From the NCBI GenBank assembly GCA_947628965.1, contig CANRBV010000005.1, forward strand, positions 1 through 51,925: a stretch of DNA of 51,925 nt, in the 5' to 3' direction. The DNA comes from an uncultured Bacilli bacterium. Lineage in GTDB: Bacteria; Bacillota_I; Bacilli_A; RF39; UBA660. How positions within the stretch are numbered: position 1 is the stretch's first letter; each line of letters begins with the position of its first letter. Position numbers and translations under genes: made by a program. Of the stretch, positions 13,641-42,952 are shown in pieces. The notes beneath the pieces were generated by a model. That model was given only the letters and a program-made list of their open reading frames with translations, had not been told where the DNA came from and searched no databases.

Positions 13641-13649
13641 AACATCCTC

Positions 13650-17482: not shown

Positions 17483-17569
17483 CTAATAAAAAATATGTGC
17501 TTTACTACAAAATATGACATAACAATACAAAATAATTTTATAGAATAAATATAGAAAGAAGGTAACAAA

Positions 17570-18604
17570 ATGAAGATGAAAGAACTTATTTTAGCCAGTA
17601 GTTTTACTATTCTTCTTACAGGTTTATTTTCATATTTTATTTATCAAGAGAATAGAAATGCTAATAAGGTGATTCCTGTTATGAAAGAAACGCAAAAAGT
17701 TATTTCTTATATTCAAAATACAAACGAATTTAAAGAAGAATATAAAAGTATGTATGAACAGATTACTTTTCATGAAGAAGAAAATTTTTTTCATGAAATT
17801 AATTGTTTACTTCATTTAAATTATACTCCTATAGAAATAAATGAACTGTATGATTTTGTTTCTCACAAAAATATCGAAAAACTATTAGATTTTGAAAAAA
17901 TGAATTTAAAAAACTACTATACAATTCCCAATTTTGAAGTGGATAAAATTCCTCGCTATGAAATGTACCAAGATAAAACAAACACTACTTTAGAAGAAGC
18001 TGTTTTAAAAGTCAATATTGGATTAGACCATGAATTTTATACTCAAATTGAAGAAATTGCAAAAAAAGACGATTATGCTATTTTGGTTAATAAATATCGT
18101 TTTTTAGGTCAATATGAACCAACCGATTTAAAAAGTTTAAGTTATGATGAGAAGTATCAATTAAGACAAAAAGCAGCGGATGCCTTTGAAGAATTGGTTA
18201 GTTTTGCAAAATTAGAAAATGTTTTTATAAGACCTTATAGTGCTTATCGCTCTTATTTTTATCAACAATCTATTTATAATACTTATGTAAACAAAGATGG
18301 AAAAAATATGGCCGATACTTATTCAGCAAGGCCAGGACATTCGGAACATCAAACTGGACTTGCTGTTGATGTATGGAGTGAAGGTTTAGAAGAATTAAAA
18401 GAAAGTGATGCCAATTGGTTAAAAGAAAATGCCTATCTATTTGGATTTATTGTTCGTTATACAAAGGAAACAGAAAAGATTACTGGGTATATTGAAGAAC
18501 CATGGCATTTAAGATATTTAGGAAAAGACTTAGCTAAAAAAGTTTATGAAAGTCATCTTACCTATGATGAATATTACGATTTATATTTAAAAAATTTAAA
18601 CTAA
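17570..18604 (+). CDS. M15B (VanY/LdcB-like) carboxypeptidase
   Basis: SAYRSY..Q, SARPGHSEHQTGLAVD, EPWHLRYLG; N-terminal TM helix. Confidence 0.92.
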   Translation: MKMKELILASSFTILLTGLFSYFIYQENRNANKVIPVMKETQKVISYIQNTNEFKEEYKSMYEQITFHEEENFFHEINCLLHLNYTPIEINELYDFVSHKNIEKLLDFEKMNLKNYYTIPNFEVDKIPRYEMYQDKTNTTLEEAVLKVNIGLDHEFYTQIEEIAKKDDYAILVNKYRFLGQYEPTDLKSLSYDEKYQLRQKAADAFEELVSFAKLENVFIRPYSAYRSYFYQQSIYNTYVNKDGKNMADTYSARPGHSEHQTGLAVDVWSEGLEELKESDANWLKENAYLFGFIVRYTKETEKITGYIEEPWHLRYLGKDLAKKVYESHLTYDEYYDLYLKNLN

Positions 18605-27716: not shown

Positions 27717-27748
27717 AAAAAGCGTTCAATTATTTGAACGTTTTTTTA
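27715..27748. terminator. Bidirectional terminator between rpsD and essC
   Basis: A-run-GCGTTCAA-ttat-TTGAACGT-T-run. Confidence 0.8.
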
Positions 27749-27751
27749 TAT

Positions 27752-30700
27752 CTAGATGTTTGTATCTTTTGCTTTAAAATCTGTAAGCAATTTCACTTTA
27801 TATAGTTTTGCATTATTTATTACATATCCAAAATCATTTGGAATTTCCTCTCGGTCGTCTCTTGTAATTTTAGAAATTTTAAACAATGTTTGATCAGCAA
27901 CCCCACTACCAATCCATATTCCTTTCGTCAAATCCGCACCAACCTTAAACCATTCTTCATAGGTAAATGGTTTAATCACATCTGGATTATCGATGATAAC
28001 AAAAGAAATTAAGTTCATTTGAGCATCTTTTTTCATACATTCTCCAAACCTTTTTTTCGCCTCATCGCTTAACTTATTCATAAAGGAATAAAGACCATAA
28101 ATAAAGCAATACATTTTCTTTTGATTTTGAATAGAATCAAGTTCCATATGATTTTGTTCGTAAATAGCATAGACTTGATCAATATAATCTAGTATTTTTA
28201 AAAGATTTTCTTCAATATTTTTAGTAATATAGTTTCGAGTTAAATTTTCATTTGTTATAACATGTTCAGACGCATTAAAGAAATAAAGATTTGCATATTT
28301 CTCATAACAAATTTGGTTAATAAAAGCATTAAGAGTGGCATCTACATTTTCAATATCATAAGAACCGATAAAATGTAGGGCATTCTTAGAAAAGTTATAT
28401 TTTTCAACGGTAAGTGTCTCTTTATTTACCCCTACTGCAATAGAAAAATCATGAGATAAAGCACTTTCGATACTTTCAAAATTAACAACTTCAGGTAAAA
28501 CAGGAATTTTCTTAGCTCGATAAAGAGAAGCTTTACTAAATTTTTCACATACTTCCCTTATGTATTCACTCGTATTTTCTTGTTTAATACTTGCTGTTTG
28601 AAATTCATAGATTTTATCCTTTTTAAATAACCCTCTTCCCTTAATCTTCGATGGAACTTTACCACGAACATTACCAAGAATGGCTGAATAATCAAAATCA
28701 TTATTTTGTTGCAATGCATAAATTAAATTAAAGTTTTGTTTTAAACGCATACGGACACTACTTTCACTTGAAGCACTCATAACAAAATATATTCCATAAC
28801 GTGTTGCTTCTCTAGTAATCGTTGTTAATTCTTCATTTAAATCTTCATAGTTTTCAACAAAAGCTTCATAGTTATTAAGGACCACCACAATATTGGGAAG
28901 CGTTTTACCACTTGAACGTAAATAATTTATATAACTACCACCGAAACTAGCAAATAAATTTTTTCGATTTTGTAATTCCTCTTCAATCATTTTAAATAAG
29001 TTAATAATTTTATCGGTATCTCCTAAATAGGCGATATCGCCAACATGAGGAGCAGAAACAAAATTACGTAGAGTTTCTCCGCCAAAATCTAAAAGATAGA
29101 AATTTAATTCGGCAATAGAATACGTTGTCATTCCAGAATAAACGAGTGTTTCTAAAAATTCTTCTTTGCCACTATCCGCAATACCATACACGATGGCATT
29201 TCCACTTTCAAATAAAGGAAGCGTTAAAACGTATTGATTTTGGCTATCTGGATCATCATATTCCCCAATAATAGGATTTAAAATATAATTTTGACGTTTA
29301 AAATTGTATTTACTTTTCAAACTATCCACATAAATTTTTTCGGGTATTTTTTCTAACCATAGTTTTTTAATCTCTATATGTTCATTTCTAGCCAGATCAC
29401 TTAAGTATTTTACAACGCTAGATAACTCTTCTCCCTCAGCATGAACAACTTGAGGTTTTTGCGTATCCTTACTCATAGTTGTAATTCCAATATTATTAAT
29501 CAAATTTACAGAAGTATCTACGTCTTTTTTAAACATTTGACTTGGGATGTATCTTGCTCCAGCCCAAGCAGCTTGTCCCAAAGTAAAGACTTCATCATAT
29601 CCAACTTGTAAATAGAACCTTCCTGTTTTCTTTAAATAAGCAGCGTCTGGTTTTTTTAATACTTCTTGAGAATCTCCTGTATCTTGTACTTTTAAACAAA
29701 CACGAAAACGCGTATTCGACCAAATTTGTTGGTCGACAACACCGCCAGGTTTTTGAGTAGCAAGTATTAAATGAACCCCTAAACTACGTCCCACACGAGC
29801 AACTGAAATTAACTTATCCATAAATTCTGGTTGTTGTTCTTTTAATTCGGCAAACTCATCACTAATAATGAATAAATGGGCAATTTGGTCTTTTCCTTTT
29901 AAGCGACCTTCACGCCACAATTTTTGGTATTTATAAATATCAATGGTACTTTCATTTGTCATGACTCTCGCTTCATTAAATTCTCTTTGACGTCTTTTAA
30001 TTTCACTTTCGATAGATGCAAGAGAACGTGTTAATTCACTTCCATCTAAGTTCGTCATTATTCCTGCTAAATGAGGAAGGGTATAGTAATCGTTTTGAAA
30101 AGCTAAGGCAAGTCCTCCACCCTTATAATCGATTAAAATCACTTGCACTTCATAAGGACTATAATTAACCGCTAAAGAAAGTACATAGGAAATAATAAAT
30201 TCAGATTTACCACTACCCGTTGTTCCAGCAATCAAACCATGGGGTCCATGATATTTTTCGTGTAAATCCAAACTAATAATTTCTCCACCTTTACCAATTC
30301 CAACAGGAGTTTGTAAAGAAAGCATTGGATTACTTTTTTTCCATCGATCTAGTGAATTTAATTGTTCTACTTTCCCAACTTGGTACATTTCTAAGAAATG
30401 ATAAACATCTGGTAAACTGCTTTCTGTTTCACTTTTTATTTCTACTTTAATATTAGCAAGTTCTTTACTACAATTGTAAAGTTCATCCATAGAAGATAAA
30501 TCCATTTTAAAACTTTGGGCTTGCTCATTTAAAACACTTTTAAAAATAGCACATTCTTCTTGATTCACATGAATAAAGTTTTTACATTCATTAGGACAAG
30601 CAGAAACACGATCGACTAACATAATGATACTAAATCCATAATTTTCACTACTTCCTAAAATATTTTTAATTAAATCATAATTATCAATAGATTTAATAGC

Positions 30701-32350
30701 ATCTGTAACAAGAACATAATGAGGAACATGTTTTTGTTTTTCTTTACTTTCACGTCTTTCATGAAAAATTTTATCTAATTGATAAATCATTTCTCTATAT
30801 TCATCATTGGTAGATCCAAAATATCGAAAGGTATGATCGTTCGACCAACTATGAGGTAATGTTTTAACATAATCCCATAAGGATTCATTCTCTAAAGAAG
30901 TAAAGGTTACAATTTTCACTTCATCATAACTATAGTTAGTCATAATTTGTAATAGAAGTCGATCTGCTAATTCTTTTGTTAAAGCAGGACTCCCGACAAT
31001 TCCAGTTGCTTTATTTTCATAAAAAGAATACGTAATAGGAACGTCTCTTAAAATTCGTTTTGTTTCTCCTAGTTCATGAACTAAATCAAGCAAGTTATCT
31101 TCGGTTAGAGAAAAATGTTCTTCAGGATATTGTACTTCAATTTCCATTGGAATATTTCCAATTCCTACGGGAAGGTCTAAAAAATCTTCATCTCCAATTC
31201 TTCTTTGCCATAAACGTACATTATGGGCTCTTATAATATCAAGACATTCAGAAACACTTAGATTATTAGAAACTAAAGAGCTTTTTTGCTTATTCATTTC
31301 CATTTCAATTTCTTTTTCTTTTTTATCTAAATATTTTTTATAAAGTTTTTGACGTTTTTTCTCCCATCTTTTATCTGAAAATTTTTGATAAGCTTTCGTA
31401 AGAGTTGGCCAAAGTAGCGAACTTGCAAGCATTACAATACACATTGCAATAGAGGTTGCAGAATCACTTACGGTTCTTTCTCCTTTGTTAATTGCATTCA
31501 TTGTTGACATAAGCATTACAACACTCATCATAGACATGGTAAGCATTGGGCCAATCGTTAAAATCGCTGGTGTTTGATTTTCATCTTTTTTAAAAGGAGG
31601 AGCATCAATTTTCAAAACAAATTTATTAGTTTTTTCGTAAAATCTAGGGGTACGATAAAAATAATCTTCACCATAGTAATCTAAAGTTAATTCTTCATAA
31701 TTCTCATTAAAATTGGAAATTTCTTTTGTACATGTAGCATATAAAGCAGACGGAGCAACAAGACCATTTGGATTATTCACTAAAAAATAATCAGCACCTT
31801 CTTTGCGCATCAAAATTAGTTTTAAACCAAAAACAAAAATAATATCTCCATATTCTATTTTTTTTACATTACGGACACGTTTTTGATTTACATAAACAAA
31901 ACTATTTTCATCTACCAATTTTAACATATAATATTTTTCTTGCTTTTCAATTGTAAATATTGTACTACTTAATCCTGGTAATTGATAATTAATCTTATTG
32001 TTATCTCCATTTCCAACGGAAATACCTTCATCTTTGACTAAATTAAATTCTCTAAAAGTTTGATCACATAAGGGTGAACAATAAAGGTAATATTTTTCTT
32101 GTTTGTAATTATTTTTAATAGATAATAATTTTCCTTCTTCTAGCTTTACATAAGGGACCATAACTTCTTGATTATCAATAATGAAAGCTTCACGATTGCT
32201 ATATAGCAACCATCCTTCTTCCGTAGCATCAATATTCATCAAATTTATTTTGCGGCCATTTTCAAAATCGCTAAGCCAATAACTCCCTATTCTATTTTTA
32301 GGAAGTGTAAAGAGAATTAATTTATTTTCTTTTATGAGAGCTATTTGCAT
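27752..32350 (-). CDS. essC: Type VII secretion ATPase EssC (YukB-like)
   Basis: Two FHA-like domains, FYRTPR, two TM helices, HGPHGLIAGTTGSGKSE, IDYKGG, DEFAELK, GRSLGVHLILATQKP, two further FtsK-type domains. Confidence 0.95.
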   Translation of the reverse strand: MQIALIKENKLILFTLPKNRIGSYWLSDFENGRKINLMNIDATEEGWLLYSNREAFIIDNQEVMVPYVKLEEGKLLSIKNNYKQEKYYLYCSPLCDQTFREFNLVKDEGISVGNGDNNKINYQLPGLSSTIFTIEKQEKYYMLKLVDENSFVYVNQKRVRNVKKIEYGDIIFVFGLKLILMRKEGADYFLVNNPNGLVAPSALYATCTKEISNFNENYEELTLDYYGEDYFYRTPRFYEKTNKFVLKIDAPPFKKDENQTPAILTIGPMLTMSMMSVVMLMSTMNAINKGERTVSDSATSIAMCIVMLASSLLWPTLTKAYQKFSDKRWEKKRQKLYKKYLDKKEKEIEMEMNKQKSSLVSNNLSVSECLDIIRAHNVRLWQRRIGDEDFLDLPVGIGNIPMEIEVQYPEEHFSLTEDNLLDLVHELGETKRILRDVPITYSFYENKATGIVGSPALTKELADRLLLQIMTNYSYDEVKIVTFTSLENESLWDYVKTLPHSWSNDHTFRYFGSTNDEYREMIYQLDKIFHERRESKEKQKHVPHYVLVTDAIKSIDNYDLIKNILGSSENYGFSIIMLVDRVSACPNECKNFIHVNQEECAIFKSVLNEQAQSFKMDLSSMDELYNCSKELANIKVEIKSETESSLPDVYHFLEMYQVGKVEQLNSLDRWKKSNPMLSLQTPVGIGKGGEIISLDLHEKYHGPHGLIAGTTGSGKSEFIISYVLSLAVNYSPYEVQVILIDYKGGGLALAFQNDYYTLPHLAGIMTNLDGSELTRSLASIESEIKRRQREFNEARVMTNESTIDIYKYQKLWREGRLKGKDQIAHLFIISDEFAELKEQQPEFMDKLISVARVGRSLGVHLILATQKPGGVVDQQIWSNTRFRVCLKVQDTGDSQEVLKKPDAAYLKKTGRFYLQVGYDEVFTLGQAAWAGARYIPSQMFKKDVDTSVNLINNIGITTMSKDTQKPQVVHAEGEELSSVVKYLSDLARNEHIEIKKLWLEKIPEKIYVDSLKSKYNFKRQNYILNPIIGEYDDPDSQNQYVLTLPLFESGNAIVYGIADSGKEEFLETLVYSGMTTYSIAELNFYLLDFGGETLRNFVSAPHVGDIAYLGDTDKIINLFKMIEEELQNRKNLFASFGGSYINYLRSSGKTLPNIVVVLNNYEAFVENYEDLNEELTTITREATRYGIYFVMSASSESSVRMRLKQNFNLIYALQQNNDFDYSAILGNVRGKVPSKIKGRGLFKKDKIYEFQTASIKQENTSEYIREVCEKFSKASLYRAKKIPVLPEVVNFESIESALSHDFSIAVGVNKETLTVEKYNFSKNALHFIGSYDIENVDATLNAFINQICYEKYANLYFFNASEHVITNENLTRNYITKNIEENLLKILDYIDQVYAIYEQNHMELDSIQNQKKMYCFIYGLYSFMNKLSDEAKKRFGECMKKDAQMNLISFVIIDNPDVIKPFTYEEWFKVGADLTKGIWIGSGVADQTLFKISKITRDDREEIPNDFGYVINNAKLYKVKLLTDFKAKDTNI

Positions 32351-32363
32351 ATTACTACCCCTT

Positions 32364-32618
32364 TTAATATAAAATTAGTTTAGATCCATTTCTAATTTTA
32401 CTTTCTTTTACATATTCTTCTTCATTTATTTTTTCCCCTGTTTCTTGATCATACAAACAGGAAGTATGATCATCAATAAAGGCTTGATTACTTTCTTCTT
32501 CAATTATTTGAACAATCAAATTTTTAATTGTTCCTACTTTTTTTGTTGTTGGAATATAAAGATCAATGTTTTTTTCCAACATAGGAACGGTAACAACAAC
32601 GTATATTTTACTATTCAT
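32364..32618 (-). CDS. EsaB/YukD-like ubiquitin-fold protein
   Basis: 84 aa, IDLYIP...IRNGSKLILY ending; directly upstream of essC. Confidence 0.75.
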   Translation of the reverse strand: MNSKIYVVVTVPMLEKNIDLYIPTTKKVGTIKNLIVQIIEEESNQAFIDDHTSCLYDQETGEKINEEEYVKESKIRNGSKLILY

Positions 32619-32851
32619 TATACCCTCCTAAAAAAACAAATGAGCAAAATAACAAGAAGCATTAAGAAAAAAACACCAATTGCACAAAAAATAGCAAAAC
32701 GAATATTTTTTTTCTTTTCTACTACTGTTTCTATCTCAACTGTTTTATCAATACCTGGAACATAAGAATGAGCAAGACTTAATTTTGCTTTACAATTGAT
32801 ACAAATTTGATCCCCAGGATGGGTTTCATAACCACACTTTTCACACCTCAT
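32618..32851 (-). CDS. Zinc-ribbon single-pass membrane protein (full copy)
   Basis: MRCEKCG...CINC, C-terminal TM helix; stop overlaps the esaB-like start. Confidence 0.8.
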   Translation of the reverse strand: MRCEKCGYETHPGDQICINCKAKLSLAHSYVPGIDKTVEIETVVEKKKNIRFAIFCAIGVFFLMLLVILLICFFRRV

Positions 32852-32908
32852 GTTTATCACCCTTTATTATGTCTTTATTTTACCATAAGGAAAAATAAAA
32901 GAAAAGAA
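32687..32908. repeat. 222-bp direct repeat, copy 1
   Basis: Matches 34462-34683 (offset 1775 bp); no differences seen by eye. Confidence 0.92.
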
Positions 32909-32935
32909 AAACCAAATGATTTCACTTGATTTTTC

Positions 32936-34126
32936 CTATTTTTCTAAAAGCCAATCAAAGATATTTATTTGTTTTATTCCGTTATAAGATGTATATGGGG
33001 TGTAATCTGTTGTAAGTAAATATTTGGGATTATGGTCATTAATTATATCTAAAGATTTTAGTTCTCGTTCTAAAGTTTTTTCATCTTTTACAGTATAACT
33101 TACTTGATAATACTCTACACCTTTTTCATTTATAGCAACAAAATCAACTTCATTCATATCTTGTTTTCCAATATAAACTTCATATCCTCTTCTTAATAGT
33201 TCTAAATAAACAATATTTTCTAAAATACGGCCATCATCACCTTTTGTACTTCCTAACAAATAATATCTTAAACCAACATCAGAAACATAATATTTTGCCC
33301 CCGAAGTTAAATAATTTTTTCCTTTTATATCGTATCTTGGTGCTTTATATAAAACAAAAGATTCAACCAAAGCATCTAAATATTTTTCAACAGTCGGTAC
33401 GGATATTTTACGTCCATTTGAAGTCATTGTATTTGATATACTTGTACTAGAACAAATATTTCCAATATTATCAAACATAAACTTAATGATATCTTTTAAC
33501 ATGCCAATGTCTGAAATATCTTTTCGCTCTGCTATATCATTTACAATAACGGTATTATACAAGCCATCCAAATACATTTTAATATCTTTTGCATTATTTA
33601 GCATTAAAGTATAGGGAAAAGAACTTTTGGTAATATAATCAACATATTTTTTTTGAATATCATTTTCTCCCACATAAGAAATGTATTCTTTAAAAGATAA
33701 AGGTAACATTTTTATTTCAACGTATCTTCCTGATAGTAAGGTTGCTAATTCCCCTGATAATAATTTTGAATTCGAACCAGTAATATATAAATCCACATTC
33801 TTTTTTATGTATAAACTATCACAGGCTTTTTGAAAATCTATTACTTTTTGTACTTCATCAATAAAAACATAATTTTGTTTATTTTTTATTAATTTAGAAT
33901 CAATATACTCATATAAATCTTTATAATCTCTGATATTATCGAAAGTATAATCTTCTAAATTAAGATAGATAATTTGCTCATTAGAAACCCCCTTACTTTT
34001 TAAATATTCTATATACAATTCATATAAAGTTGATTTACCACATCTTCTTATACCTGTAACAATTTTAATTAATTTTTTATCTTTAAATTGAATTAACTGA
34101 TTTAAATATTCGGGTCTTTCTATCAT
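32936..34126 (-). CDS. AAA_14 + DUF4143 family ATPase
   Basis: GIRRCGKST, FIDEVQ, ITGSNS, KYYVSDVGL, LENIVYLELLRRG, EVDFVA...YYQV. Confidence 0.92.
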   Translation of the reverse strand: MIERPEYLNQLIQFKDKKLIKIVTGIRRCGKSTLYELYIEYLKSKGVSNEQIIYLNLEDYTFDNIRDYKDLYEYIDSKLIKNKQNYVFIDEVQKVIDFQKACDSLYIKKNVDLYITGSNSKLLSGELATLLSGRYVEIKMLPLSFKEYISYVGENDIQKKYVDYITKSSFPYTLMLNNAKDIKMYLDGLYNTVIVNDIAERKDISDIGMLKDIIKFMFDNIGNICSSTSISNTMTSNGRKISVPTVEKYLDALVESFVLYKAPRYDIKGKNYLTSGAKYYVSDVGLRYYLLGSTKGDDGRILENIVYLELLRRGYEVYIGKQDMNEVDFVAINEKGVEYYQVSYTVKDEKTLERELKSLDIINDHNPKYLLTTDYTPYTSYNGIKQINIFDWLLEK

Positions 34127-34144
34127 CTGTATCCCTCCATAAAC

Positions 34145-34189
34145 ATTATAGCAGAAAGTTATATTTTTGTAAATTATATTTTACAAAAA
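34145..34189 (-). promoter_or_regulatory. ATPase promoter overlapped by a palindrome
   Basis: TTTACA-17 bp-TATAAT on -; TTTTTGTAAA-ttatat-TTTACAAAAA (34164-34189) covers the -35. Confidence 0.6.
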
Positions 34190-34443
34190 CGTCAAAATAC
34201 TTAGTTTTGTAAAATGTAATTTATTATTATTCAAGTCCCTTATTTTTAAAATTATTTATCAATATTTGATAATATTGTACAGTAACTAGATAATTGAGAC
34301 TTAAAAAAAATATGAATTTAGAGAATTAATTGGTTTAGGTTATTTACCAAATTCAATATTTCAATTATTACAGAACAATTACATAATTTTTAAATTTGAT
34401 ACAAAGTTATGACATAATTGACTATAAGAAATTTAAAAAATTT

Positions 34444-34626
34444 TTAATATAGAGCCAAAATAAAAATAGCAAAACGAATATTTTTTTTCTTTTCTACTAC
34501 TGTTTCTATCTCAACTGTTTTATCAATACCTGGAACATAAGAATGAGCAAGACTTAATTTTGCTTTACAATTGATACAAATTTGATCCCCAGGATGGGTT
34601 TCATAACCACACTTTTCACACCTCAT
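34444..34626 (-). pseudogene. 3'-truncated duplicate of the zinc-ribbon membrane protein
   Basis: Identical up to RFAIF, then ILALY-stop; most of the TM helix is lost. Confidence 0.75.
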
Positions 34627-34683
34627 GTTTATCACCCTTTATTATGTCTTTATTTTACCATAAGGAAAAATAAAAGAAAAGAA
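34462..34683. repeat. 222-bp direct repeat, copy 2
   Basis: Matches 32687-32908. Confidence 0.92.
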
Positions 34684-34693
34684 GAATTCATTG

Positions 34694-35404
34694 CTAAATT
34701 CTTTCTAAATCCTGTTTCAATTCTTTTACGTTTTTATAATTTAAATTTTTATCCTCTACTAGAGTTTTTCCTAATATAGAATCAAGAAGGAAAGGTGCTC
34801 CTATTACATGTTCCGTAATAGATAACTTTAACGATTCTTTTTCAATGATGATTTCATTTTTTGTTAAACCATAAAAAAGATTTTCTCCCGTAAATAATTG
34901 ATACATAATAATTCCAAAAGCATAAATATCATAGGATACATCTGCCTTTTTTTCATAAATTTGACTAAGAGAACAATATTTAATCGTTCCATATTCTATT
35001 TGTTCTCCTATAAAAGCAGAACTTCCCCAATCTAGTACATAAACCATTCCTTCTTTAGAAATCATAATATTATTTGGCTTCAAGTCACAATGGATAATAT
35101 TTTTAGCGTGCGTATATTCTAATATAGTACACAATTGAATTAAAAAATTACGTGTTGTCTTTCTATCATAGAATGTTTTATCTTGCAATAGCTCTCCTTC
35201 AATATATTCATAAAGAATATAATGCTGTTCTTTATTATATTCAACTATTTTAGGTACAAAAGGATATTCTTTTAATAAATTGACTTTTTCATACTCATTT
35301 TGTAATATTTTTAACGTTGCCTCATTAATTGTAGCCAGCTGTTTTTTTAAATATTTTTTATTATTACTAGAAATAACTTCACAATAAAAATTATCTTTCT
35401 TCAT
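34694..35404 (-). CDS. Small soluble Hanks-type Ser/Thr protein kinase
   Basis: YEYIEG, IIHCDLKPNNIM, LDWG, GTIKY, DIYAFGIIMYQLFTG; no TM helix. Confidence 0.88.
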   Translation of the reverse strand: MKKDNFYCEVISSNNKKYLKKQLATINEATLKILQNEYEKVNLLKEYPFVPKIVEYNKEQHYILYEYIEGELLQDKTFYDRKTTRNFLIQLCTILEYTHAKNIIHCDLKPNNIMISKEGMVYVLDWGSSAFIGEQIEYGTIKYCSLSQIYEKKADVSYDIYAFGIIMYQLFTGENLFYGLTKNEIIIEKESLKLSITEHVIGAPFLLDSILGKTLVEDKNLNYKNVKELKQDLERI

Positions 35405-35730
35405 CTTTTAATCTCCTGACTACTTTCACGACTCACAATTTCCGTAATATCCATTTGTTCTATTAGATAATAATTATTTGCATCTTCATTTTCATTTATA
35501 CAAGCATAATCAAAATCATTAAAATCTACTTCTACTATGGTATAGATGGCTTCACTATTGGCAATTTTAATTTTGTCTCCAACATTTAATTTTTCACTTA
35601 TAAAAGGATTTTTTCTTTTTTCTTCTAAATAATCATAGTACTCTTTTCCTTTTAAAATTTTTCCATCCACAGTTTCATATTGTATTTCATTTGTATAAAG
35701 TTCACTTGTAAAATTACCTTGTTCTTCCAT
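35401..35730 (-). CDS. Small acidic protein, candidate immunity protein
   Basis: 109 aa, directly after the effector; ATGA overlap with the kinase; SH3/KOW-like LNVGDKIKI...YTIVEVD. Confidence 0.65.
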   Translation of the reverse strand: MEEQGNFTSELYTNEIQYETVDGKILKGKEYYDYLEEKRKNPFISEKLNVGDKIKIANSEAIYTIVEVDFNDFDYACINENEDANNYYLIEQMDITEIVSRESSQEIKR

Positions 35731-35749
35731 TTATATCACTCTCCTTTAG

Positions 35750-35778
35750 ATTATAGTATGTTTATTTTATAAGCACAA
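35750..35778 (-). promoter_or_regulatory. Internal promoter for the small protein plus kinase
   Basis: TTGTGC-17 bp-TATAAT upstream of an AAGGAG RBS. Confidence 0.5.
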
Positions 35779-35821
35779 TCCCCATTAAAATTCTTTTATT
35801 TTATCTAAACTATAAGACTTT

Positions 35822-38800
35822 TTATACTTCCGAATGAACTTCCTCATCTTTTACATTAGACATTTGGACAGATGAATTTTTATTTTTTATAGTGTTCATA
35901 TCATCTAATTGTTCAATATTTATTGTTTCTTTCTTAACATTCGAAGTTTCAATAGGAATTGCATCTACTTGAATAATATATTGTCTGCTTTCCTTATTAT
36001 AAATCGGAGCAGATTTTACTTTATATTGCATATTTCTAGGTAATAATAACTCTTGTTGGTTATAGCCTCCTACTCCAGTAAATGATTCTAAATACATAGC
36101 TTTCATACCTTTTGGTAACTCAATTCTTAACAAAATTTTTCTTGTCGAATTTATATGAGCTGGCAACACACTAGTACTAGAATGAGCACTATCATTTAAA
36201 ATTGTTCCAATTCTGATATCCTTTAATTTAATTTGTTCTCCATTTGAATATAATTGATTAACACCACGGTAAACCAACAAATTATCTTGTAGTCCTGGAC
36301 TTTGTTCTATCAAATTATCTAATATTTCATTTATTTGTTCTACACTCAAAGAATCTGATATTGGATGATTAGGATGAGATTCGTTATATTCTCGCTTACA
36401 TTCATTTAAATAGTCTTCTATAAATTCAAGTTTTGTTCCATCCATTCTATAATTATCATAATAAGTTACTGCATTTCTATTATAAGCCGCTAAGGCTGGA
36501 CCAAAATATCGTGTAAACATATAAATGGTTTGTTTCTCTATATTTGTTAAATTTAACTGTTCATTGTTCATGTACTTTATCAATTGTTTCTGTTCATCGG
36601 AAAGATATTTTTCTAACACATTATATAAAAGTTGTTCATCCATGTCTCCTACAAGTATATTTTTTCTTACTTTTTGATTATTTTCATCTAGTTTCATTTC
36701 ATATGTTATACCCTCTATACCGTGAAACATATTTTCTTCTATATCATATAAGTATTGCTTTGCATCATGAAAATAATTAGCAACTTCTTGTCTATTAAGT
36801 AAATTGACATTATTAGAAGAATCACGATGATAAATAGTATTTACAACTGTATTAAAAGATTTTTGAAAACGATTTAATTCATCTAAACTTTCATTTTTTG
36901 ATTTTAAATCATAAAGCAATTTTTGTTTTAAAGTAGAAATTTTATTTTTAATATTTGTAAAGCCATTTATTTTTAATTTTTCTGTTGTTTCTAATTTTTC
37001 TGTTGTTTCCATGTCCCGATTAGAATCTAAATCTGCATTTTTCATTTCCATATAAATTTGTTCTATTTCTTCAGGTTTGTAATTATATATACCTTTTTCC
37101 ATATTATCTGCAATAGCTGAATACTTTATATCCATCATTTGGAGCCATTCTTCACCAAATAGTTCTTTAGAAATTTCTAAAGCTGTTTGCATATCATAAA
37201 ATTTCATTCTTGTAAAATCAGCAAATTGTTCATCAAAACTTCTAGATGGATTGGCTTGAAAATAATTTTTATCATGTGTACGTAAAAAACCATTATCATA
37301 AATTGTACTATAATAAGGATTATCCCCATTATAAATACTATCTACAATACCGCAGATAACATCATAAATCTGCATTGTTTCATCATTATCACACATATAA
37401 AAGAAATTGTTTTTTCCCCATTCATTTTTATATCCACTAAGAATATATTCTTTTATCTTTGCTTTATCATTTGCTTCTATCAACTGATTAACTGTTTCTG
37501 GTTTATCCTTCTTAATTTTACAAGCATCTTCTAAAGATTCTCGAAGAGAAGTAGGATTTTCCATTATTTTTTCTATTTCTGCATCAAAAGTTTCTTTATT
37601 ATATTCCATGTAATTATTTACATCTATAATAGATTGTTGCCATAATCTTTCTTTGTAATCGCGTGCTTCTTGTAAAAAAGATTCTATCTTTTTAGGATTA
37701 TTCTTCCATTTTGTTTTTATATTTTCTGAAATATCTGAATATTCATCTGGTACATGAACTCCATCAATTAAATGAAAAAGTGCATGGCCAAGTTCATGAG
37801 AAAATGTTCCATTACTAATCTCAATTTCTCTTTGAATGTCAAAAGTACCATTATCAAATATATAATTTGTATCCCTAAACAAAGTTTTACCTAAAGTCTG
37901 AATATCGTATAAATTTATTTTTAGGACATTTTCTAATTTATTAATATTATTTACAATTTTTTTAGTACTTTCATCTCCCGTATTTAAAGCATGCAATAAA
38001 ACATCACTAAACACTTTAGCAGAACCATAATCCATATTATCAATATTGTTTCTAATATAATCTTGAGCGGACTTAGGTAATTTATTAAAATTAGAATCTA
38101 ACGTTATATTTTCTATATTATCAGCATTCAAAACTTCTATATTTCCCGTGTTATTAGCCTGCAAATCTAAAGATTTATTTTTGGGATTTTTAAATAAGGA
38201 ATTTAAATAACTATCTTTAATGGATTGAACATTCTTTTTATTATTAACATAAGCTTCAATTTTTTTTCCTTCTTCAGTATTTTTATAATTATCATATACA
38301 TCTTTTGAGACAGATTCATAAACTAATTCATCATTTTGTTGCTTTAATATAAAATATTCTTTGGTTGCATTTTGATTTGTTAAATCAAATTTTCCATCAT
38401 AACTAATTGCATGATCATCCAGATTTCTTATTTTTAATTTTGAACTTTCGATAACATCTGTTGTTGGCATAACTTTAATGGCTGTTGCTGTCAAAGGCAA
38501 ATAATCTAAATTGGTTGCAAAAGCACCTACATCAGGAATTTCGGAAAAAAAGAAAGTTTTTGGATTTCCATAAGAAGCATTTATACCACTAGGTTTAATA
38601 TAACCACTTTGAAGAATTTGATCTGCCGCATTGGTAAAATGATACAAACCACTTTTTTCAATTTTCTCATTTATTCCAACAAAATTATTCGTATTTTTAT
38701 ATACATATCTTTTTAAATTTGATTCTAAAGTAAGTCGCAATGATTGTGGTAACGAAAAATTATTATATTTTAAACCAGTTATTTTATTTTGAGTTTGAAC

Positions 38801-40900
38801 ATTTTGTTTTACTATTTGTGCATTAATTTCACTAGCTACTAGATTTGGTGAATTTAAAATTCCACCCGTAATGGCTCCATAAATAGCACTCTTTTCTGCA
38901 TTTTTTGTTACTTCTTTTAGATCAATTTCTTCATTAAAAATTTTATATCGCATTAAAGCATCTACATATTCTTGTGAACCTTCTTCTATACCTTCTTTTA
39001 ACATAGAGTGTGCAAATGTTTTTAAACTAGTAACATTAACATCACTTAATCCTGGTATTGCTCCTAAAAATCTTTCTAAAGTTGTTTCTGATACCCCAGA
39101 TAAAACTCCATATGCTACGGCATGTTTCAATTCTTTACCTTCTACCATCGCACTATGATAGCTACTACCTCCAGCACTTATTCCCATACTAATACTACCT
39201 ACCGCTGGTGTACAAAGAATACCTAAGGCCATACTTGGTAACATGTTTCCAATACTTTGGGATATTTCATAATTATTATCGAGTATTCCATCGTATTTTT
39301 CCGTATTTTGTAATGCTTCTAAAATATACATAGATTCATATTCATCTTCACTATAAATTCTCGAATCAATTTCTAAATTATTTTCAATTCCTAAAAGGGA
39401 AGAAGCATATGCCCCTACTCCTTTTATTGCATTTGCAAATCCGCTAAAATGCAACTCTGTTCCATCTCCAACACCTTTTGCTGTTACTTTCACATGATTT
39501 TTTAAAAAACTTGATAACCTTTTCTTGGTTTCTTCATTCGCTTTTTCATCCTCTAAACCATTTAAAAACTTTTGAGCTTTTATATATCCATTTAATTGAT
39601 TGACACTATTTTTAGTGGCAAATAAATATTCCTCTGCTGTATCTTTACCACATTTTTCCCATAAGTAATTATACATTTTTGCAAGTTCAGGATTCGTTTC
39701 CGATGCTTTTAGTAAACTTTCTAGTTCTCCTTTATGCTCTATTGTAATTTGATCTCGATTGAAGCTTTGATTTAATACTCTAAATTCTTCTAAAGGACTC
39801 ACCTTTATTCCATCTTTATTTGCTGTTCGGTAGGAATCTAAACTTAGTGTATCATACGTATAATCTTGATAATCCTTAGTCAAAGGTAATAAGTCATAAA
39901 TCACACATTTTTTTAATTCATTTGTTTTTTCAATAGAAGCTTCTAAAGTTGCTTTATCACTTTTTAAATCATTTAATCTTTTACTAAATTCTTGATATGT
40001 AAGAAATCCTGTTGATTCTTTTACTGAATTTGTTAATTCTTTTTCATTCTTAGCAAGAGTATCATACCATTCCTTTATGGTACTATCTTTTTCTTTACAT
40101 AATTTAAATAACGCATCAAAACTTAATTTTTTTAATTCTTCTTCTGTTATTCCTAATTCTTTTAATTTATCTTCATTAACCCCTAATGTTTTATAATCAC
40201 TAATTGCACCTCTGGCATCAGATTCTACTACTCTTTTTTGATCTTCCAAAAATTCATATTGTCTATTAAAACCTTTTTCAAAAGGTAATAATTTTGCTAA
40301 TTCTTCATCTACTATTTTTAATAATTCATTATATTCATCAATTTCTTTTTGGTACGCTTCTTCATATGTACTAAGTAAACTTTGAAAGTCATCACTTTCA
40401 ATACTTTCTAATAAATTGGCATTATCAGCATAGGCACCTAAATCCATATTAAAATTGTTATTAGCATCATTTAAGTTTTCTGTATCAAAAGTAGCCTTTT
40501 GAATTGTATTTAAGTTTGGAGTTTCTAAAGAAACATGTAGAACTGAAAAAATATCTTCGTCGGTTAATTTTAATTTTTTTAAGGAATTACGATATTGTTC
40601 TACAGAGCCTTTTGTACTTGAATCAAAAATATTTTGTGTTCCAATATTACTTAAATTTTGTTCAATAGCTTCTAAATCATTGGTATATTCACTAATATAT
40701 TCTGAAACGTTTTCAATATTCTTAGCAATCGTTTGATAATTTTTATTAATTTTTTCTAAATATTTGGATACCAATGTACCGCTCGAATTAAATCCATTTG
40801 GAATAAAAGTATTTTTTTTATTTTGATAGTAGGTTTTAAAATTTTTCATTTTATCTACATTTATTTTCATTGCACTCGTATTAGCATAAAATCGTTCCAT
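35822..40900 (-). CDS. Multidomain T7SS effector (helical N-terminus, Gly-rich hydrophobic region, HYD-like ART, HEXXH metallopeptidase, R-S-E ART)
   Basis: GLYHFT..I..SG.IKPS...SYG; SHELGH...EQFAD; VYRG...SSTS...LPKG...QQELLLPRN; lies within the WXG100/essC locus. Confidence 0.8.
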   Translation of the reverse strand: MERFYANTSAMKINVDKMKNFKTYYQNKKNTFIPNGFNSSGTLVSKYLEKINKNYQTIAKNIENVSEYISEYTNDLEAIEQNLSNIGTQNIFDSSTKGSVEQYRNSLKKLKLTDEDIFSVLHVSLETPNLNTIQKATFDTENLNDANNNFNMDLGAYADNANLLESIESDDFQSLLSTYEEAYQKEIDEYNELLKIVDEELAKLLPFEKGFNRQYEFLEDQKRVVESDARGAISDYKTLGVNEDKLKELGITEEELKKLSFDALFKLCKEKDSTIKEWYDTLAKNEKELTNSVKESTGFLTYQEFSKRLNDLKSDKATLEASIEKTNELKKCVIYDLLPLTKDYQDYTYDTLSLDSYRTANKDGIKVSPLEEFRVLNQSFNRDQITIEHKGELESLLKASETNPELAKMYNYLWEKCGKDTAEEYLFATKNSVNQLNGYIKAQKFLNGLEDEKANEETKKRLSSFLKNHVKVTAKGVGDGTELHFSGFANAIKGVGAYASSLLGIENNLEIDSRIYSEDEYESMYILEALQNTEKYDGILDNNYEISQSIGNMLPSMALGILCTPAVGSISMGISAGGSSYHSAMVEGKELKHAVAYGVLSGVSETTLERFLGAIPGLSDVNVTSLKTFAHSMLKEGIEEGSQEYVDALMRYKIFNEEIDLKEVTKNAEKSAIYGAITGGILNSPNLVASEINAQIVKQNVQTQNKITGLKYNNFSLPQSLRLTLESNLKRYVYKNTNNFVGINEKIEKSGLYHFTNAADQILQSGYIKPSGINASYGNPKTFFFSEIPDVGAFATNLDYLPLTATAIKVMPTTDVIESSKLKIRNLDDHAISYDGKFDLTNQNATKEYFILKQQNDELVYESVSKDVYDNYKNTEEGKKIEAYVNNKKNVQSIKDSYLNSLFKNPKNKSLDLQANNTGNIEVLNADNIENITLDSNFNKLPKSAQDYIRNNIDNMDYGSAKVFSDVLLHALNTGDESTKKIVNNINKLENVLKINLYDIQTLGKTLFRDTNYIFDNGTFDIQREIEISNGTFSHELGHALFHLIDGVHVPDEYSDISENIKTKWKNNPKKIESFLQEARDYKERLWQQSIIDVNNYMEYNKETFDAEIEKIMENPTSLRESLEDACKIKKDKPETVNQLIEANDKAKIKEYILSGYKNEWGKNNFFYMCDNDETMQIYDVICGIVDSIYNGDNPYYSTIYDNGFLRTHDKNYFQANPSRSFDEQFADFTRMKFYDMQTALEISKELFGEEWLQMMDIKYSAIADNMEKGIYNYKPEEIEQIYMEMKNADLDSNRDMETTEKLETTEKLKINGFTNIKNKISTLKQKLLYDLKSKNESLDELNRFQKSFNTVVNTIYHRDSSNNVNLLNRQEVANYFHDAKQYLYDIEENMFHGIEGITYEMKLDENNQKVRKNILVGDMDEQLLYNVLEKYLSDEQKQLIKYMNNEQLNLTNIEKQTIYMFTRYFGPALAAYNRNAVTYYDNYRMDGTKLEFIEDYLNECKREYNESHPNHPISDSLSVEQINEILDNLIEQSPGLQDNLLVYRGVNQLYSNGEQIKLKDIRIGTILNDSAHSSTSVLPAHINSTRKILLRIELPKGMKAMYLESFTGVGGYNQQELLLPRNMQYKVKSAPIYNKESRQYIIQVDAIPIETSNVKKETINIEQLDDMNTIKNKNSSVQMSNVKDEEVHSEV
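36974..37009. repeat. 18-bp tandem repeat in the effector linker (ETTEKL x2)
   Basis: TAATTTTTCTGTTGTTTC twice. Confidence 0.85.
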
Positions 40901-40983
40901 CTAAATACATCCTTTCTAAATAGAGGCATGAAAAAATAACCTACTCTACATTAAATAAATTTTAGCATATTTTTAGATTGCTT

Positions 40984-41481
40984 TCAATGACTTAATAGGT
41001 TATCAATCGTTTTTTCTAAGGTGGTAATATTTCGAGTTTTAGTAGCTATTAAATTACTTTTAGCGTTAATTTGGTTCACTACACCTTGATCAAGAATTGT
41101 TCTTTCTTCTTCATATTCTTCTCCATAATCATCTATATAAGAATATATTTCCGTTTTATATTTATGTTTTTCTAGCTCTACAATCTCTGCTTTTAAATTT
41201 TTTATTTCTTTTTCTAAAGTTTGAATTCTAATGATGTGTTCACAAGCGGTTTTTAAAGTGGTTAAGTTTTTTTTCAAAGTAGAAACTGAACCGATTTTAG
41301 AACTCGCCATAATTTCATCTGTTTTTGTTTTAATCACACCAGTAATAGAAGAATATAAAACATCAGAATTTGTTAAATTGGCTTTTATTGTTTCCAGACT
41401 ATAAATTGGTAATTCATTTAAAGCAGACTCAATTGTATTTTTTAAGGATTCTGCTGAAACATTTGAATATTTACTCATCAT
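40984..41481 (-). CDS. Helical/coiled-coil protein, probable effector partner
   Basis: 165 aa, amphipathic helices, immediately upstream of the effector. Confidence 0.65.
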   Translation of the reverse strand: MMSKYSNVSAESLKNTIESALNELPIYSLETIKANLTNSDVLYSSITGVIKTKTDEIMASSKIGSVSTLKKNLTTLKTACEHIIRIQTLEKEIKNLKAEIVELEKHKYKTEIYSYIDDYGEEYEEERTILDQGVVNQINAKSNLIATKTRNITTLEKTIDNLLSH

Positions 41482-41492
41482 ATCAAATTCCT

Positions 41493-41780
41493 CTAAAACT
41501 TCATATAATTGCTTATTCCGTGATCTGTTTTTCGATAATTTTCAACAACAGCATCCAAATATACTTTTACATTATAAAATTTAGTATTCACACTTTCCAT
41601 ATTATTTAAAATCATTTTTACTTGTTCAAAAAAATAGTTTCTTGTTTCAGAATTCCAATTGGCATTATTATAAATAATTTTATAAGATTCTTCCAGGGAA
41701 TCCATGATTGTATTAATTTTTTTAAAAAAAGAATTTAATGCCGTAGCATAATTTTCTAGTTCATTATAATCGCAATACAT
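41493..41780 (-). CDS. WXG100-like protein
   Basis: 95 aa, central W (WNS), C-terminal YRKTD (YxxxD/E). Confidence 0.75.
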   Translation of the reverse strand: MYCDYNELENYATALNSFFKKINTIMDSLEESYKIIYNNANWNSETRNYFFEQVKMILNNMESVNTKFYNVKVYLDAVVENYRKTDHGISNYMKF

Positions 41781-41791
41781 AGTTATCCCTT

Positions 41792-42085
41792 CTATTCTAT
41801 ATTCAGTTCTTTATTTAAATATTGTGTATCTACTATCTCTTCTGTTTTTACATAGCCTTTTACAAATTCATTAAAAGATTCTATTTGCTTTTTAAAATTA
41901 TCTAATTCACTCATAAAGTCATTCATTTTTGTCAAAAAATTAGAATATTCCTTTTTTTTCCAAATATTTCCAATATCTGCTATAGTTTTTTCTATATCAT
42001 TTGTATTGGATTCCAAATCTTCAATATATCCTTCACATTTATTTGTTTCATTTCGAAGTATTTTGGTATTTGCTAGAATTATCAT
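41792..42085 (-). CDS. WXG100-like protein
   Basis: 97 aa, central W (WKK), C-terminal YVKTE (YxxxD/E). Confidence 0.72.
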   Translation of the reverse strand: MIILANTKILRNETNKCEGYIEDLESNTNDIEKTIADIGNIWKKKEYSNFLTKMNDFMSELDNFKKQIESFNEFVKGYVKTEEIVDTQYLNKELNIE

Positions 42086-42095
42086 AGTATCACCC

Positions 42096-42159
42096 TTTTA
42101 TAAATAAGTTTTTAAATTATTTAAAAACTTATTTATAAAAACCACTTTAGTGGTTTTTA
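42096..42159 (-). terminator. Two overlapping hairpins after the tandem WXG100 gene
   Basis: 21-bp perfect inverted repeat (42096-42140) and TAAAAACCACT/AGTGGTTTTTA (42136-42159). Confidence 0.65.
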
Positions 42160-42804
42160 ACGTGCTACATCAGCATTTTGAGCATTTTCTGCTGCTTGTG
42201 AAATATTAGATATACATATTTCTAAATTGCTTAATACAGTTTTCATATTTGTTGTTAAAGTTTCTAATAATTCATCATGAGCACTTGCAGCAGCTTCTCC
42301 ATCCCATAAACCAGTTCCATCATTTACCTGCATAATTTCTCTTTCTAAGTTTCCATATACTTCTGTTAAGCGTTCTTTAATTGACTTTAAGCTTCCGCCA
42401 ATTTCTAAAATTCTTGCATAATCATAAACTACTGCTTCTTGTCTTATTATTTCAGGAACATAATCAGAAATATTAGAATAGCTTAAATTCATAGCTCCCG
42501 CTACGTTAGTATTTCCTCCTAAATTTGAAACTTCTAAGTTTTCAACATTTTTGTTTACAGAATTCATTGCTTCTTGAAAAGATGTACCAAAAGCATTAAT
42601 AAATTGAATTAAAGCCTTATGCGTTGCTGTAAAATCTTCATAGTTTTTTGCAGCGGCAGCTCCTGTCCATACATTTGGTTGAGCTAATGCATCCATTTGT
42701 TGTCCGAACTCTTTTGAACAACTTGAGATATTTTCGTCTAAATATCTTGCAACTTTGTTAGACCATTCATTAATTCTAATAGGGTCATATCTAAATATTG
42801 CCAT
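42157..42804 (-). CDS. Tandem double-WXG100 (EsxA-like) protein
   Basis: Two ~100-aa units, each starting YD and centred on WTGAAA or WDGEAA. Confidence 0.85.
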   Translation of the reverse strand: MAIFRYDPIRINEWSNKVARYLDENISSCSKEFGQQMDALAQPNVWTGAAAAKNYEDFTATHKALIQFINAFGTSFQEAMNSVNKNVENLEVSNLGGNTNVAGAMNLSYSNISDYVPEIIRQEAVVYDYARILEIGGSLKSIKERLTEVYGNLEREIMQVNDGTGLWDGEAAASAHDELLETLTTNMKTVLSNLEICISNISQAAENAQNADVAR

Positions 42805-42846
42805 TTTTTTACCTTCTTTCTATTGTATACATCATATACTATTTAA

Positions 42847-42875
42847 AGCATAACATGAAAGATTAAGAATTTCAA
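42847..42875 (-). promoter_or_regulatory. SigA promoter of the T7SS locus
   Basis: TTGAAA-17 bp-TATGCT with extended TGn. Confidence 0.55.
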
Positions 42876-42919: not shown

Positions 42920-42952
42920 AAAAGAAGAAAAGCTTTTGAGCTTTCTTCTTTT
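42920..42952 (-). terminator. Terminator of the glycan cluster
   Basis: AAAGAAGAAA.GC...GCTTTCTTCTTT inverted repeat. Confidence 0.65.

Follow-up and report, generated by a model that had tools for sequence, protein, structure and literature searches.

What is the smallest set of parts with which a bacterium may carry out type VII secretion? The question is raised by a group of genes on a stretch of 51,925 nucleotides from an uncultured Bacilli bacterium (lineage RF39, UBA660 in GTDB; contig CANRBV010000005.1 of assembly GCA_947628965.1). This stretch, referred to below as the window, makes up the entire contig C5 of the draft genome G000, and all coordinates are window positions unless another contig or locus is named. 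It encodes the ATPase EssC of a system for type VII secretion (T7SS), together with a putative ubiquitin-like YukD protein and WXG100-type proteins, in a neighbourhood where EssB (YukC) and EsaA (YueB), subunits of the T7SSb, are not recognisable. It is still under study which parts of a Firmicute T7SS form the channel and which act as scaffold or span the wall, and the first structure of a T7SSb core (YukB, YukC and YukD) reportedly dates from 2025. Sequence comparisons lead us to predict, as the probable reading, a functional, self-contained and pared-down T7SS subtype which, as far as could be searched, is limited to a clade of uncultured small-genome, walled and spore-forming Bacilli.

The T7SS block extends from 42804 to 27752 on the minus strand, and every notable open reading frame (ORF) in it is intact. 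In order of transcription, it encodes a fused double WXG100 protein, two WXG100-like helical proteins of 97 and 95 amino acids (W97 and W95), a helical protein of 165 amino acids (Hel165), a toxin of 1692 amino acids, a 109-amino acid protein, a kinase, a truncated 63-amino acid copy of a zinc-ribbon protein, an ATPase with AAA_14 and DUF4143 domains, the complete zinc-ribbon protein with its transmembrane (TM) helix (ZnTM), YukD and EssC. Only EssC, with two, and ZnTM, with one, have hydrophobic segments among these 12 locus proteins. A first-pass annotation of the window had described a co-oriented block, and all the genes that it listed are present as intact minus-strand ORFs where it had placed them. 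Its list was correct in what it named and left out the AAA_14/DUF4143 gene, a 225-nucleotide direct repeat and the truncated zinc-ribbon copy.

EssC (1532 amino acids; 27752-32350, minus strand) scores 1025.6 bits against TIGR03928, for which the cut-off is 778.4, and 143.5 bits against FtsK_SpoIIIE (PF01580). Its layout comprises tandem FHA domains at about residues 1-200, two TM helices (262-280 and 299-317) and FtsK-like ATPase domains, and its best sequence match in the PDB is YukB of 9qks (419 bits), the core unit of the B. subtilis T7SSb. The Walker A motif of the D1 domain, GTTGSGKS, is invariant in all 25 EssCs of the clade, the window protein carries a Walker B-like LFIISDE, and the second P-loop reads G-x4-G-K-E throughout the clade. 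When the first 300 residues were compared as a profile with the PDB, FHA domains were matched (Ki-67, E 1.5e-4). An AlphaFold2 model of residues 1-340, with a predicted local distance difference test score (pLDDT) of 80-93 over residues 1-200 and low values at 207-247, was closest in Foldseek to YukB (9qks_H, E 9.5e-8), and the EssC FHA structures 5fwh (TM-score 0.71 on the target) and 1wv3 were also found; these likenesses of the model indicate that the tandem FHA module of the T7SSb type has been retained. In the second of these domains (FHA2), the phosphothreonine-binding Arg and Ser/His are not conserved in the alignment from this profile comparison.

The absence of the partners of EssC was assessed with profile hidden Markov models (HMMs) run over the whole of G000 (1.23 Mb in 57 contigs, 91.47% complete, 0.35% contamination) and 60 relatives, 61 genomes altogether. 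In G000, there were no matches at E ≤ 10 to the models of YukC (PF10140) and EssB (TIGR03926), or to those of EsaA (TIGR03929) and of the N- and C-terminal YhgE/Pip domains (TIGR03061 and TIGR03062), while the EssA model PF10661 gave three sub-threshold matches away from the locus (E ≥ 0.02). As calibration served a canonical locus (L042) of the relative G038, in which a WXG100 gene and genes for proteins of 725, 138, 73 and 363 amino acids precede EssC. The 363-amino acid protein scores 171 bits against YukC and 147.5 against TIGR03926, and the 725-amino acid protein 51.4 bits against TIGR03929 and 39.8 against TIGR03061; the 138- and 73-amino acid proteins, at the positions of EssA and EsaB, match no Pfam or NCBIfam model. 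The negative results for EssB and EsaA therefore carry weight, since the same models detect both in the control, and that for EssA carries none, because its models miss the protein at the EssA position even there. Accordingly, the claim of the first-pass annotation that EssA, EssB and EsaA are all lacking stands for the latter two, and for EssA absence is not demonstrable.

Across the 61 genomes, EssC exceeded its cut-off in 19, namely 17 of the 31 of the genus, one more of the family and G038, which belongs to another family. YukC did so in G038 only, just upstream of the EssC gene, and in none of the family's 18 EssC-positive genomes, among them G000. Another seven YukC matches with E ≤ 0.01 were weak (13.9-22.9 bits). 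Two of them were inspected and rejected as candidates: that of G009 (22.9 bits) falls on a small kinase resembling the window kinase, and that of G016 on a 269-amino acid ORF of a 2.6-kb contig, remote from any EssC. These results bear on an alternative in which the machine is not minimal, the counterparts of EssA, EssB and EsaA being too divergent to be recognised, encoded elsewhere or located in the unassembled ~8% of the genome. Against it stand the failure of YukC to pass in any EssC-positive genome of the family, when it is readily found beside EssC in G038, and the lack of any EsaA or YhgE/Pip match in G000, when both models score in the control. T7SSa parts are likewise not recognisable in G000, as had been claimed: EccB and EccD (PF05108, TIGR03920) gave no matches at E ≤ 1 (EccE and MycP were not searched for).

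The same picture emerges from related loci. Using EssC as the query against species-representative genomes, 49 pattern matches were obtained, of which 31 were confirmed, giving 30 loci; EssC is 56-91% identical to that of the window in 27 of them and 38-39% in the other three. All 27 related loci come from uncultured, metagenome-assembled genomes titled Bacilli, 'Tenericutes' or 'Mycoplasma'. In each of the 24 related loci in which the region is covered, the gene directly upstream of EssC encodes a YukD homologue. The double-WXG100 family occurs in 20 of the 27, and W97, W95 and Hel165 are found in 18, 17 and 17 other loci, respectively, with W97 adjoining the double-WXG100 gene and Hel165 always following W97-W95. 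The conserved set is thus the YukD-EssC pair plus the double WXG100, W97, W95 and Hel165. No further conserved membrane gene, large or otherwise, was found in the 27 related loci, which again counts against undetected EssA, EssB or EsaA counterparts at the locus. It also supports the earlier description of EssC as almost the only membrane component, to the extent that EssC and ZnTM alone are hydrophobic in the window locus; ZnTM itself is missing from 8 of 25 assessable loci.

A DUF87/HerA-like ATPase of about 645 amino acids flanks the T7SS genes in 17 related loci and was considered as a core part. It was rejected, because 29 of the genus's 30 other genomes carry a homologue (E ≤ 1e-50, mostly 84-95% identity), irrespective of the presence of EssC, and that of G000 sits on contig C2 in the company of housekeeping genes (gatB and aspS); it looks like a frequent flanking gene. 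G000 has four DUF87/HerA-like paralogues of about 600 amino acids, on contigs C2 (8520-10340, L034), C37, C3 and C54.

The two small genes upstream of EssC differ in their constancy. YukD (84 amino acids; 32364-32618, minus strand), a probable ubiquitin-like protein of the YukD/EsaB type, aligns over residues 6-83 with profile positions 1-76 of 76 of PF08817, at a score below threshold (22.4 bits, E 2.2e-4; cut-off 27); the protein at the EsaB position of the control also goes unmatched. ZnTM (80 amino acids; 32618-32860, minus strand; DZR 18.8 bits) is a tail-anchored protein with a four-cysteine ribbon, a linker and one C-terminal TM segment at about 51-69. In 15 aligned sequences, residues C6, C9, G10, G16-D17-Q18, C20 and C23 are invariant, and the alignment follows the scheme C-x2-C-G-x5-G-D-Q-x-C-x2-C, then a linker that varies, a stretch rich in lysine and a TM helix ending three residues or fewer from the C-terminus. 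Its gene occupies the slot of essA in canonical loci, where the 138-amino acid protein of the control is likewise small with one C-terminal TM segment, a likeness of position and gross architecture only. Of 25 assessable loci, 17 (16 of 24 related loci and the window) have ZnTM directly upstream of yukD, and it may be an optional accessory, possibly the positional counterpart of EssA. A complex prediction of ZnTM with EssC 1-340 (score 0.00, mark 0.32) gave no answer either way.

Zinc ribbons occur beside a more distant EssC as well. In locus L030 (6891-24557) of Murimonas intestini, two proteins, of 293 and 1045 amino acids, start with a Pfam zinc-ribbon domain, and the start of a third, of 1053 amino acids, is weakly similar (tblastn) to the window ZnTM. 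N-terminal zinc ribbons on T7SS-linked membrane proteins may thus be a wider theme, and ZnTM could be a cut-down relative of longer zinc-ribbon T7SS proteins.

At the other end of the block, the first gene encodes the fused double WXG100 protein (215 amino acids; 42157-42804, minus strand), which matches PF06013 in two stretches (35.2 bits; cut-off 27.3) and TIGR03930 (47.9 bits; cut-off 44.85) and has W-x-G at residues 46 and 167. Its AlphaFold2 model (pLDDT 86, predicted TM-score (pTM) 0.81) has helices at 8-41, 49-95, 129-157 and 170-213; compared with the PDB, it gave no match at E ≤ 0.001, generic helical bundles only. From this model we infer that the protein would be a single-chain, four-helix equivalent of the EsxA dimer. 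W97 (41792-42085, minus strand; WXG100 18.7 bits, below the cut-off of 27.3) and W95 (41493-41780, minus strand; WXG100 20.7 and TIGR03930 26.1 bits, both sub-threshold) follow, with a W-x-G motif found in neither. Hel165 (40984-41481, minus strand) matches no family over the cut-off and has no hydrophobic segment.

Next comes the polymorphic toxin (1692 amino acids; 35822-40900, minus strand), composed of a conserved N-terminal helical domain of about 130 amino acids, a long variable middle and a C-terminal ADP-ribosyltransferase domain (PF03496, 58 bits, cut-off 23.4, residues 1494-1644). The latter has the motifs YRG at 1544, STS at 1575 and QQE at 1615, corresponding to an R / S-T-S / [QE]-x-E triad that we take to be the catalytic signature of the PF03496 family. 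The N-terminal domain is common to 15 effectors of related loci, the sequences of which diverge beyond it, and toxin genes with this N-terminus are located after Hel165 or upstream of yukD. The arrangement resembles that of LXG toxins and their Lap partners in the shared N-terminal helical domain with differing C-termini, the two or three small helical partners alongside, and the toxic enzyme domain at the C-terminus with a small gene after it. It differs in that there is no PF04740 match, the conserved domain is only about 130 amino acids long, and the partner genes stay with the double-WXG100 gene even where no toxin gene adjoins them. A language-model search with the N-terminus returned WXG100 and LXG clusters at 0.80-0.83, at the level of a lead only, and assignment to LXG was rejected, being without Pfam or PDB-profile support. 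The small gene directly downstream (109 amino acids; 35401-35730, minus strand) belongs to no family and has no homologue in related loci or elsewhere in G000; by its position only, the product is a candidate immunity protein.

The kinase gene that comes next had also been listed in the block by the first-pass annotation; it is not a conserved part. The protein (236 amino acids; 34694-35404, minus strand; Pkinase 94.2 bits) is a soluble Hanks-type kinase with neither a TM segment nor a glycine-rich loop, in which K21, E37, H105-C-D107, N112 and D125 are invariant in seven sequences. Seven clusters of it were found in a collection of 5.8 billion proteins, and among the 30 loci fetched with EssC only L022 and L030 have a counterpart, which in L030 is a 690-amino acid kinase-TPR protein (27% identity); G009 (L039), identified separately, has another small kinase. 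The kinase is thus an accessory gene and not core. As a stand-in for the EssB pseudokinase it is not supported, being rare, soluble and in possession of its catalytic residues, and as FHA2 is without phosphothreonine-binding residues, no role beyond regulation is offered for it.

Between this kinase and ZnTM, the block is interrupted. The AAA_14/DUF4143 ATPase gene (396 amino acids; 32936-34126, minus strand; AAA_14 123.6 bits, DUF4143 74.5 bits) has its own promoter-like site at 34173-34145 (11 of 12 consensus positions) and a terminator-like hairpin at 32937-32904, and a second copy is present on contig C42 of G000; it is an insertion and not a T7SS part. It is flanked by the two copies of the 225-nucleotide direct repeat, at 34462-34686 and 32687-32911, which are 100% identical. 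The downstream copy covers the 5' part of the ZnTM gene and its upstream region, and the upstream copy created the truncated zinc-ribbon duplicate (63 amino acids; 34444-34635, minus strand), identical to ZnTM through residue 58 and without a TM segment. In sequencing runs coded X1 and X3, the repeat piece has depths of 32.3 and 31.3 against 13-17 in the flanks, and the AAA_14 pieces are at flank depth. This roughly twofold depth fits a real duplication; both runs are probably the source sample and hence not independent.

This insertion is the ground for a further alternative, according to which the locus is decaying or has been silenced, a remnant broken between the part with toxin and kinase and that with ZnTM, YukD and EssC. 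The AAA_14 gene with its own promoter-like site, the terminator-like hairpin just upstream of ZnTM and the truncated ZnTM copy all fit it. On the other side, every ORF of the locus is intact, and the 225-nucleotide repeat duplicates the upstream region of ZnTM as well, so that the intact gene keeps its own upstream sequence. In the close relative L022, with an EssC 91% identical, the gene order is the same and the insert has been almost wholly deleted, only a 93-nucleotide remnant of AAA_14 remaining at the same spot. Moreover, the ratios of non-synonymous to synonymous substitution rates (dN/dS) against L022 and L004, respectively, lie at 0.06-0.30: 0.063 and 0.083 for EssC, 0.088 and 0.120 for YukD, and 0.303 and 0.185 for ZnTM. 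By these values, EssC is under strong purifying selection. We regard decay or silencing as highly improbable.

The limits of the block in transcription can be stated with unequal firmness. The first-pass annotation had it bounded by a promoter and a terminator. The former, upstream of the double-WXG100 gene (42847-42875, minus strand; TTGAAA-17-TATGCT, TG-extended), matches the consensus at 9 of 12 positions and is a weak lead, as promoter-like sites are not enriched in the region (95 versus 110.9 ± 10 expected). The latter is plausible: directly 3' of the EssC stop codon, at 27723-27740 on the minus strand, lies a hairpin with a 7-pair stem, three G-C pairs and the T-run tail CTTTTTTTAT, in a region that has 6 terminator-like sites versus 4.2 ± 2.4 expected. 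The G+C content of the window is about 23-33%.

How does this gene set relate to the T7SS types already described? With the T7SSb (Ess of S. aureus, Yuk/Yue of B. subtilis) it shares an EssC in which N-terminal tandem FHA domains are combined with two TM helices and FtsK-like ATPase domains, a separate YukD/EsaB-like gene adjoining essC, a WXG100 substrate, and a large polymorphic toxin with genes for small helical partners and a small gene downstream. It differs from it in that the EssB/YukC pseudokinase and EsaA/YueB were not found, the position of EssA is held by the 80-amino acid ZnTM, missing from a third of the loci, and the WXG100 protein of the window is a fused double domain. In addition, the window EssC shares just 32% identity with its canonical counterpart in G038, over residues 297-1292 only, versus 36-39% over the full length with the EssCs of L030, L032, L033, L045 and L046, none of which has YukC nearby. 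All of these EssCs pass TIGR03928 (897-1054 bits), so that a match to this model does not imply a strictly defined T7SSb. A quick maximum-likelihood tree with 34 rows places the 25 full-length EssCs of the clade, that of the window included, in one group with a support of 91 in the SH-like approximate likelihood ratio test (SH-aLRT), and the canonical EssC elsewhere, on a long branch.

Several genomes of the same genus or family (G003, G012, G013, G016, G023, G024 and G034) have two EssC genes over the cut-off. In G034, the loci L045 and L046, with EssCs 36-38% identical to that of the window, have only small genes beside EssC and no YukC; by these two loci, the lineage harbours more than one type of EssB-less cluster side by side.

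A T7SS without EssB is not new as a general idea, as T7SSc to T7SSj have been catalogued by Garrett, Higginson and Palmer (Microlife 2024; PMC11217815) from RefSeq, all of them described as being without EssB, EsaA and EssA and several with kinases. This raises the alternative that the locus is a reduced form of one of these subtypes, most plausibly T7SSf, T7SSi or T7SSj, which have FHA-bearing ATPases. The relatively high, full-length identity of the window EssC to FHA-bearing EssCs with non-canonical neighbours, such as that of L030, would fit it, as would the passing of TIGR03928 by all of them. T7SSf, T7SSi and T7SSj from Clostridia and Vallitalea are like the window locus in the FHA-bearing ATPase, the YukD-like protein and the lack of EssB, EsaA and EssA, and kinases are often found in their clusters, according to the descriptions in that catalogue. 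Their defining extra components, the EspG-like protein included (as judged by Pfam only), are not in the window locus. In Pfam searches of its 12 proteins at E ≤ 0.01, in which no genome-wide search was included, there was no PPM phosphatase, DUF6382-FHA protein, TadZ-AAA+ protein, large Ig-like protein or membrane kinase with TPR or another outer domain; of these parts of T7SSe, T7SSf and T7SSj, the TadZ-AAA+ protein is given for T7SSf and the last two for T7SSe and T7SSj (PMC11217815). For T7SSh and T7SSi, the catalogue describes a chaperone of the EspG type and a kinase-like protein (TshM or TsiM) that has its TM helix at the C-terminus. The window kinase is small, soluble and rarely present, and has no TM segment.

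The nearest in economy is T7SSg of Acetivibrio and Paenibacillus, called 'relatively simple' in the same source, in which two WXG100 units, a YukD-like protein and the ATPase are joined by only one other component. Its ATPase TsgC is described as lacking FHA domains, in contrast to the window EssC; its further component TsgL is a DUF5050 beta-propeller, and the whole of G000 has no match to DUF5050 (PF16472) at E ≤ 1, nor do the 12 locus proteins include one; and it has two separate WXG100 genes where the window has one fused gene (PMC11217815). L030 itself encodes a 293-amino acid zinc-ribbon protein, a kinase-TPR protein, two WXG100 proteins, a Big_2 protein and a 1045-amino acid zinc-ribbon/TPR/DUF5050 protein, parts that resemble the published lists for T7SSj and T7SSg (PMC11217815).

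No component set of T7SSc to T7SSj, as given in the Results of PMC11217815, matches the locus. The words 'zinc' and 'ribbon' do not occur in the portion of that text available to us, and 'tandem' and 'fused' are used there in contexts unrelated to WXG100; the catalogue is RefSeq-based, whereas the 27 related loci all come from uncultured, metagenome-assembled genomes; and the clade EssCs group apart in the tree. Word searches of the open-access literature found no later subtype name (no 'T7SSk') and no paper with phrases for tandem, double or fused WXG100. Membership of one of the described subtypes is thus quite unlikely. The novelty left to be checked by the first-pass annotation accordingly lies not in the lack of EssB but in the composition, which is unlike all eight sets as described in the text of the catalogue: an FHA-bearing EssC, YukD, an optional ZnTM, a fused double WXG100 and a fixed W97, W95 and Hel165. 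By those descriptions, this composition is new and set apart from T7SSc to T7SSj (PMC11217815).

Several observations weigh against a self-contained, pared-down machine. EssA is neither confirmed nor excluded by HMMs, given that these miss the 138-amino acid control protein, and G000 is a draft of 57 contigs that is 91.5% complete. The ZnTM gene is not in 8 of 25 loci (L007, L009, L015, L016, L020, L021, L026 and L027), and in the five of these eight genomes that were searched whole, an orthologue of about 80 amino acids was not found elsewhere, only larger proteins (open frames of 93-741 amino acids) whose ribbon or hydrophobic stretch is similar; this means that ZnTM can be dispensed with or that there are further parts as yet unrecognised. 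The tandem FHA domains have been kept in EssC, and FHA2 is bound by EssB in the canonical T7SSb of B. subtilis, as reported in 10.1101/2025.01.24.634720, so that an unrecognised partner may still bind there. The insert with its terminator- and promoter-like sites splits the operon in G000. The first 250 residues of the toxin have no Pfam LXG match (PF04740) at E ≤ 5, and a profile of 16 toxin N-termini found only chance-level coiled-coil matches among PDB sequences. Finally, the sampling of reference sequences in the EssC tree is thin.

Part of this list would be accounted for by a machine that is not minimal: the EssA models are powerless even on a canonical locus, ZnTM sits in the EssA slot with a similar tail-anchored layout, so that 'no EssA' may be wrong, the FHA domains have a known partner in EssB, and the assembly is incomplete. 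Set against the YukC, EsaA and YhgE/Pip results and the lack of a further conserved membrane gene, these points leave undetected counterparts of EssA, EssB and EsaA an unlikely explanation, and we continue to favour the pared-down subtype.

The setting of the locus is relevant, as a wall-less host could by itself have caused the loss of EsaA. The window holds the spoVA genes SpoVAC, SpoVAD and SpoVAEB with a nearby sigma factor and a STAS-domain protein (7935-9701 and 12987-13982), in a genome of only 1.23 Mb, and, at 14759-18604, genes for a Peptidase_S11 carboxypeptidase, a VanY-family D-Ala-D-Ala carboxypeptidase and an LCP-family protein. Together, these genes indicate a walled spore-former, despite the titles 'Tenericutes' and 'Mycoplasma' of relatives, and rule out a wall-less host as the cause. 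Between the spoVA genes and the sigma-factor gene lies a minus-strand ORF of 983 amino acids (9756-12707), with no Pfam match at E ≤ 1e-5, in the most G+C-rich stretch of the window (0.33). Directly upstream of the T7SS block, at 42951-44903, is a gene for a 650-amino acid protein with an N-terminal class I methyltransferase domain. It was found in one of five genomes of the genus searched, on another contig than EssC; this flank is thus not conserved, and a comparison of empty sites by way of this gene was dropped.

If the pared-down subtype is as predicted, it could work as follows. An oligomer of EssC, stabilised by YukD, would make up the channel through the membrane, with neither an EssB scaffold nor the wall-spanning part formed by EsaA, and the single-chain double WXG100 would take over the role of the EsxA dimer. 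W97, W95 and Hel165 would be Lap-type partners that bind the N-terminal domain of the toxin, and partners and toxin N-terminus together would make up a composite export signal, read by the ATPase domains of EssC. The ADP-ribosyltransferase toxin would be exported for competition between bacteria, and the 109-amino acid protein would counter it in the producer.

A stronger form of this proposal, which we advance only tentatively and think somewhat doubtful, is that EssC and YukD are a complete translocon in a walled, spore-forming Firmicute lineage, without any accessory membrane subunit, and that the double WXG100 replaces the EsxA dimer, in what would be an eleventh and the most reduced natural T7SS subtype, known only from uncultured genomes. 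On that reading no other accessory membrane subunit would be required, as a third of the loci are without even ZnTM. With EssC as the sole membrane protein of the cluster in that third, the system is a candidate for the most reduced natural T7SS.

Should the proposal hold, a natural system without EssB and EsaA but with an FHA-bearing EssC and YukD would offer a small gene set for tests of sufficiency, and a single-chain WXG100 would fix the stoichiometry of the EsxA-like unit. The locus also makes clear that RefSeq-based surveys miss T7SS diversity among uncultured gut Bacilli, in which it is armed with large polymorphic toxins, and it may show the minimum number of parts with which type VII export can be achieved.

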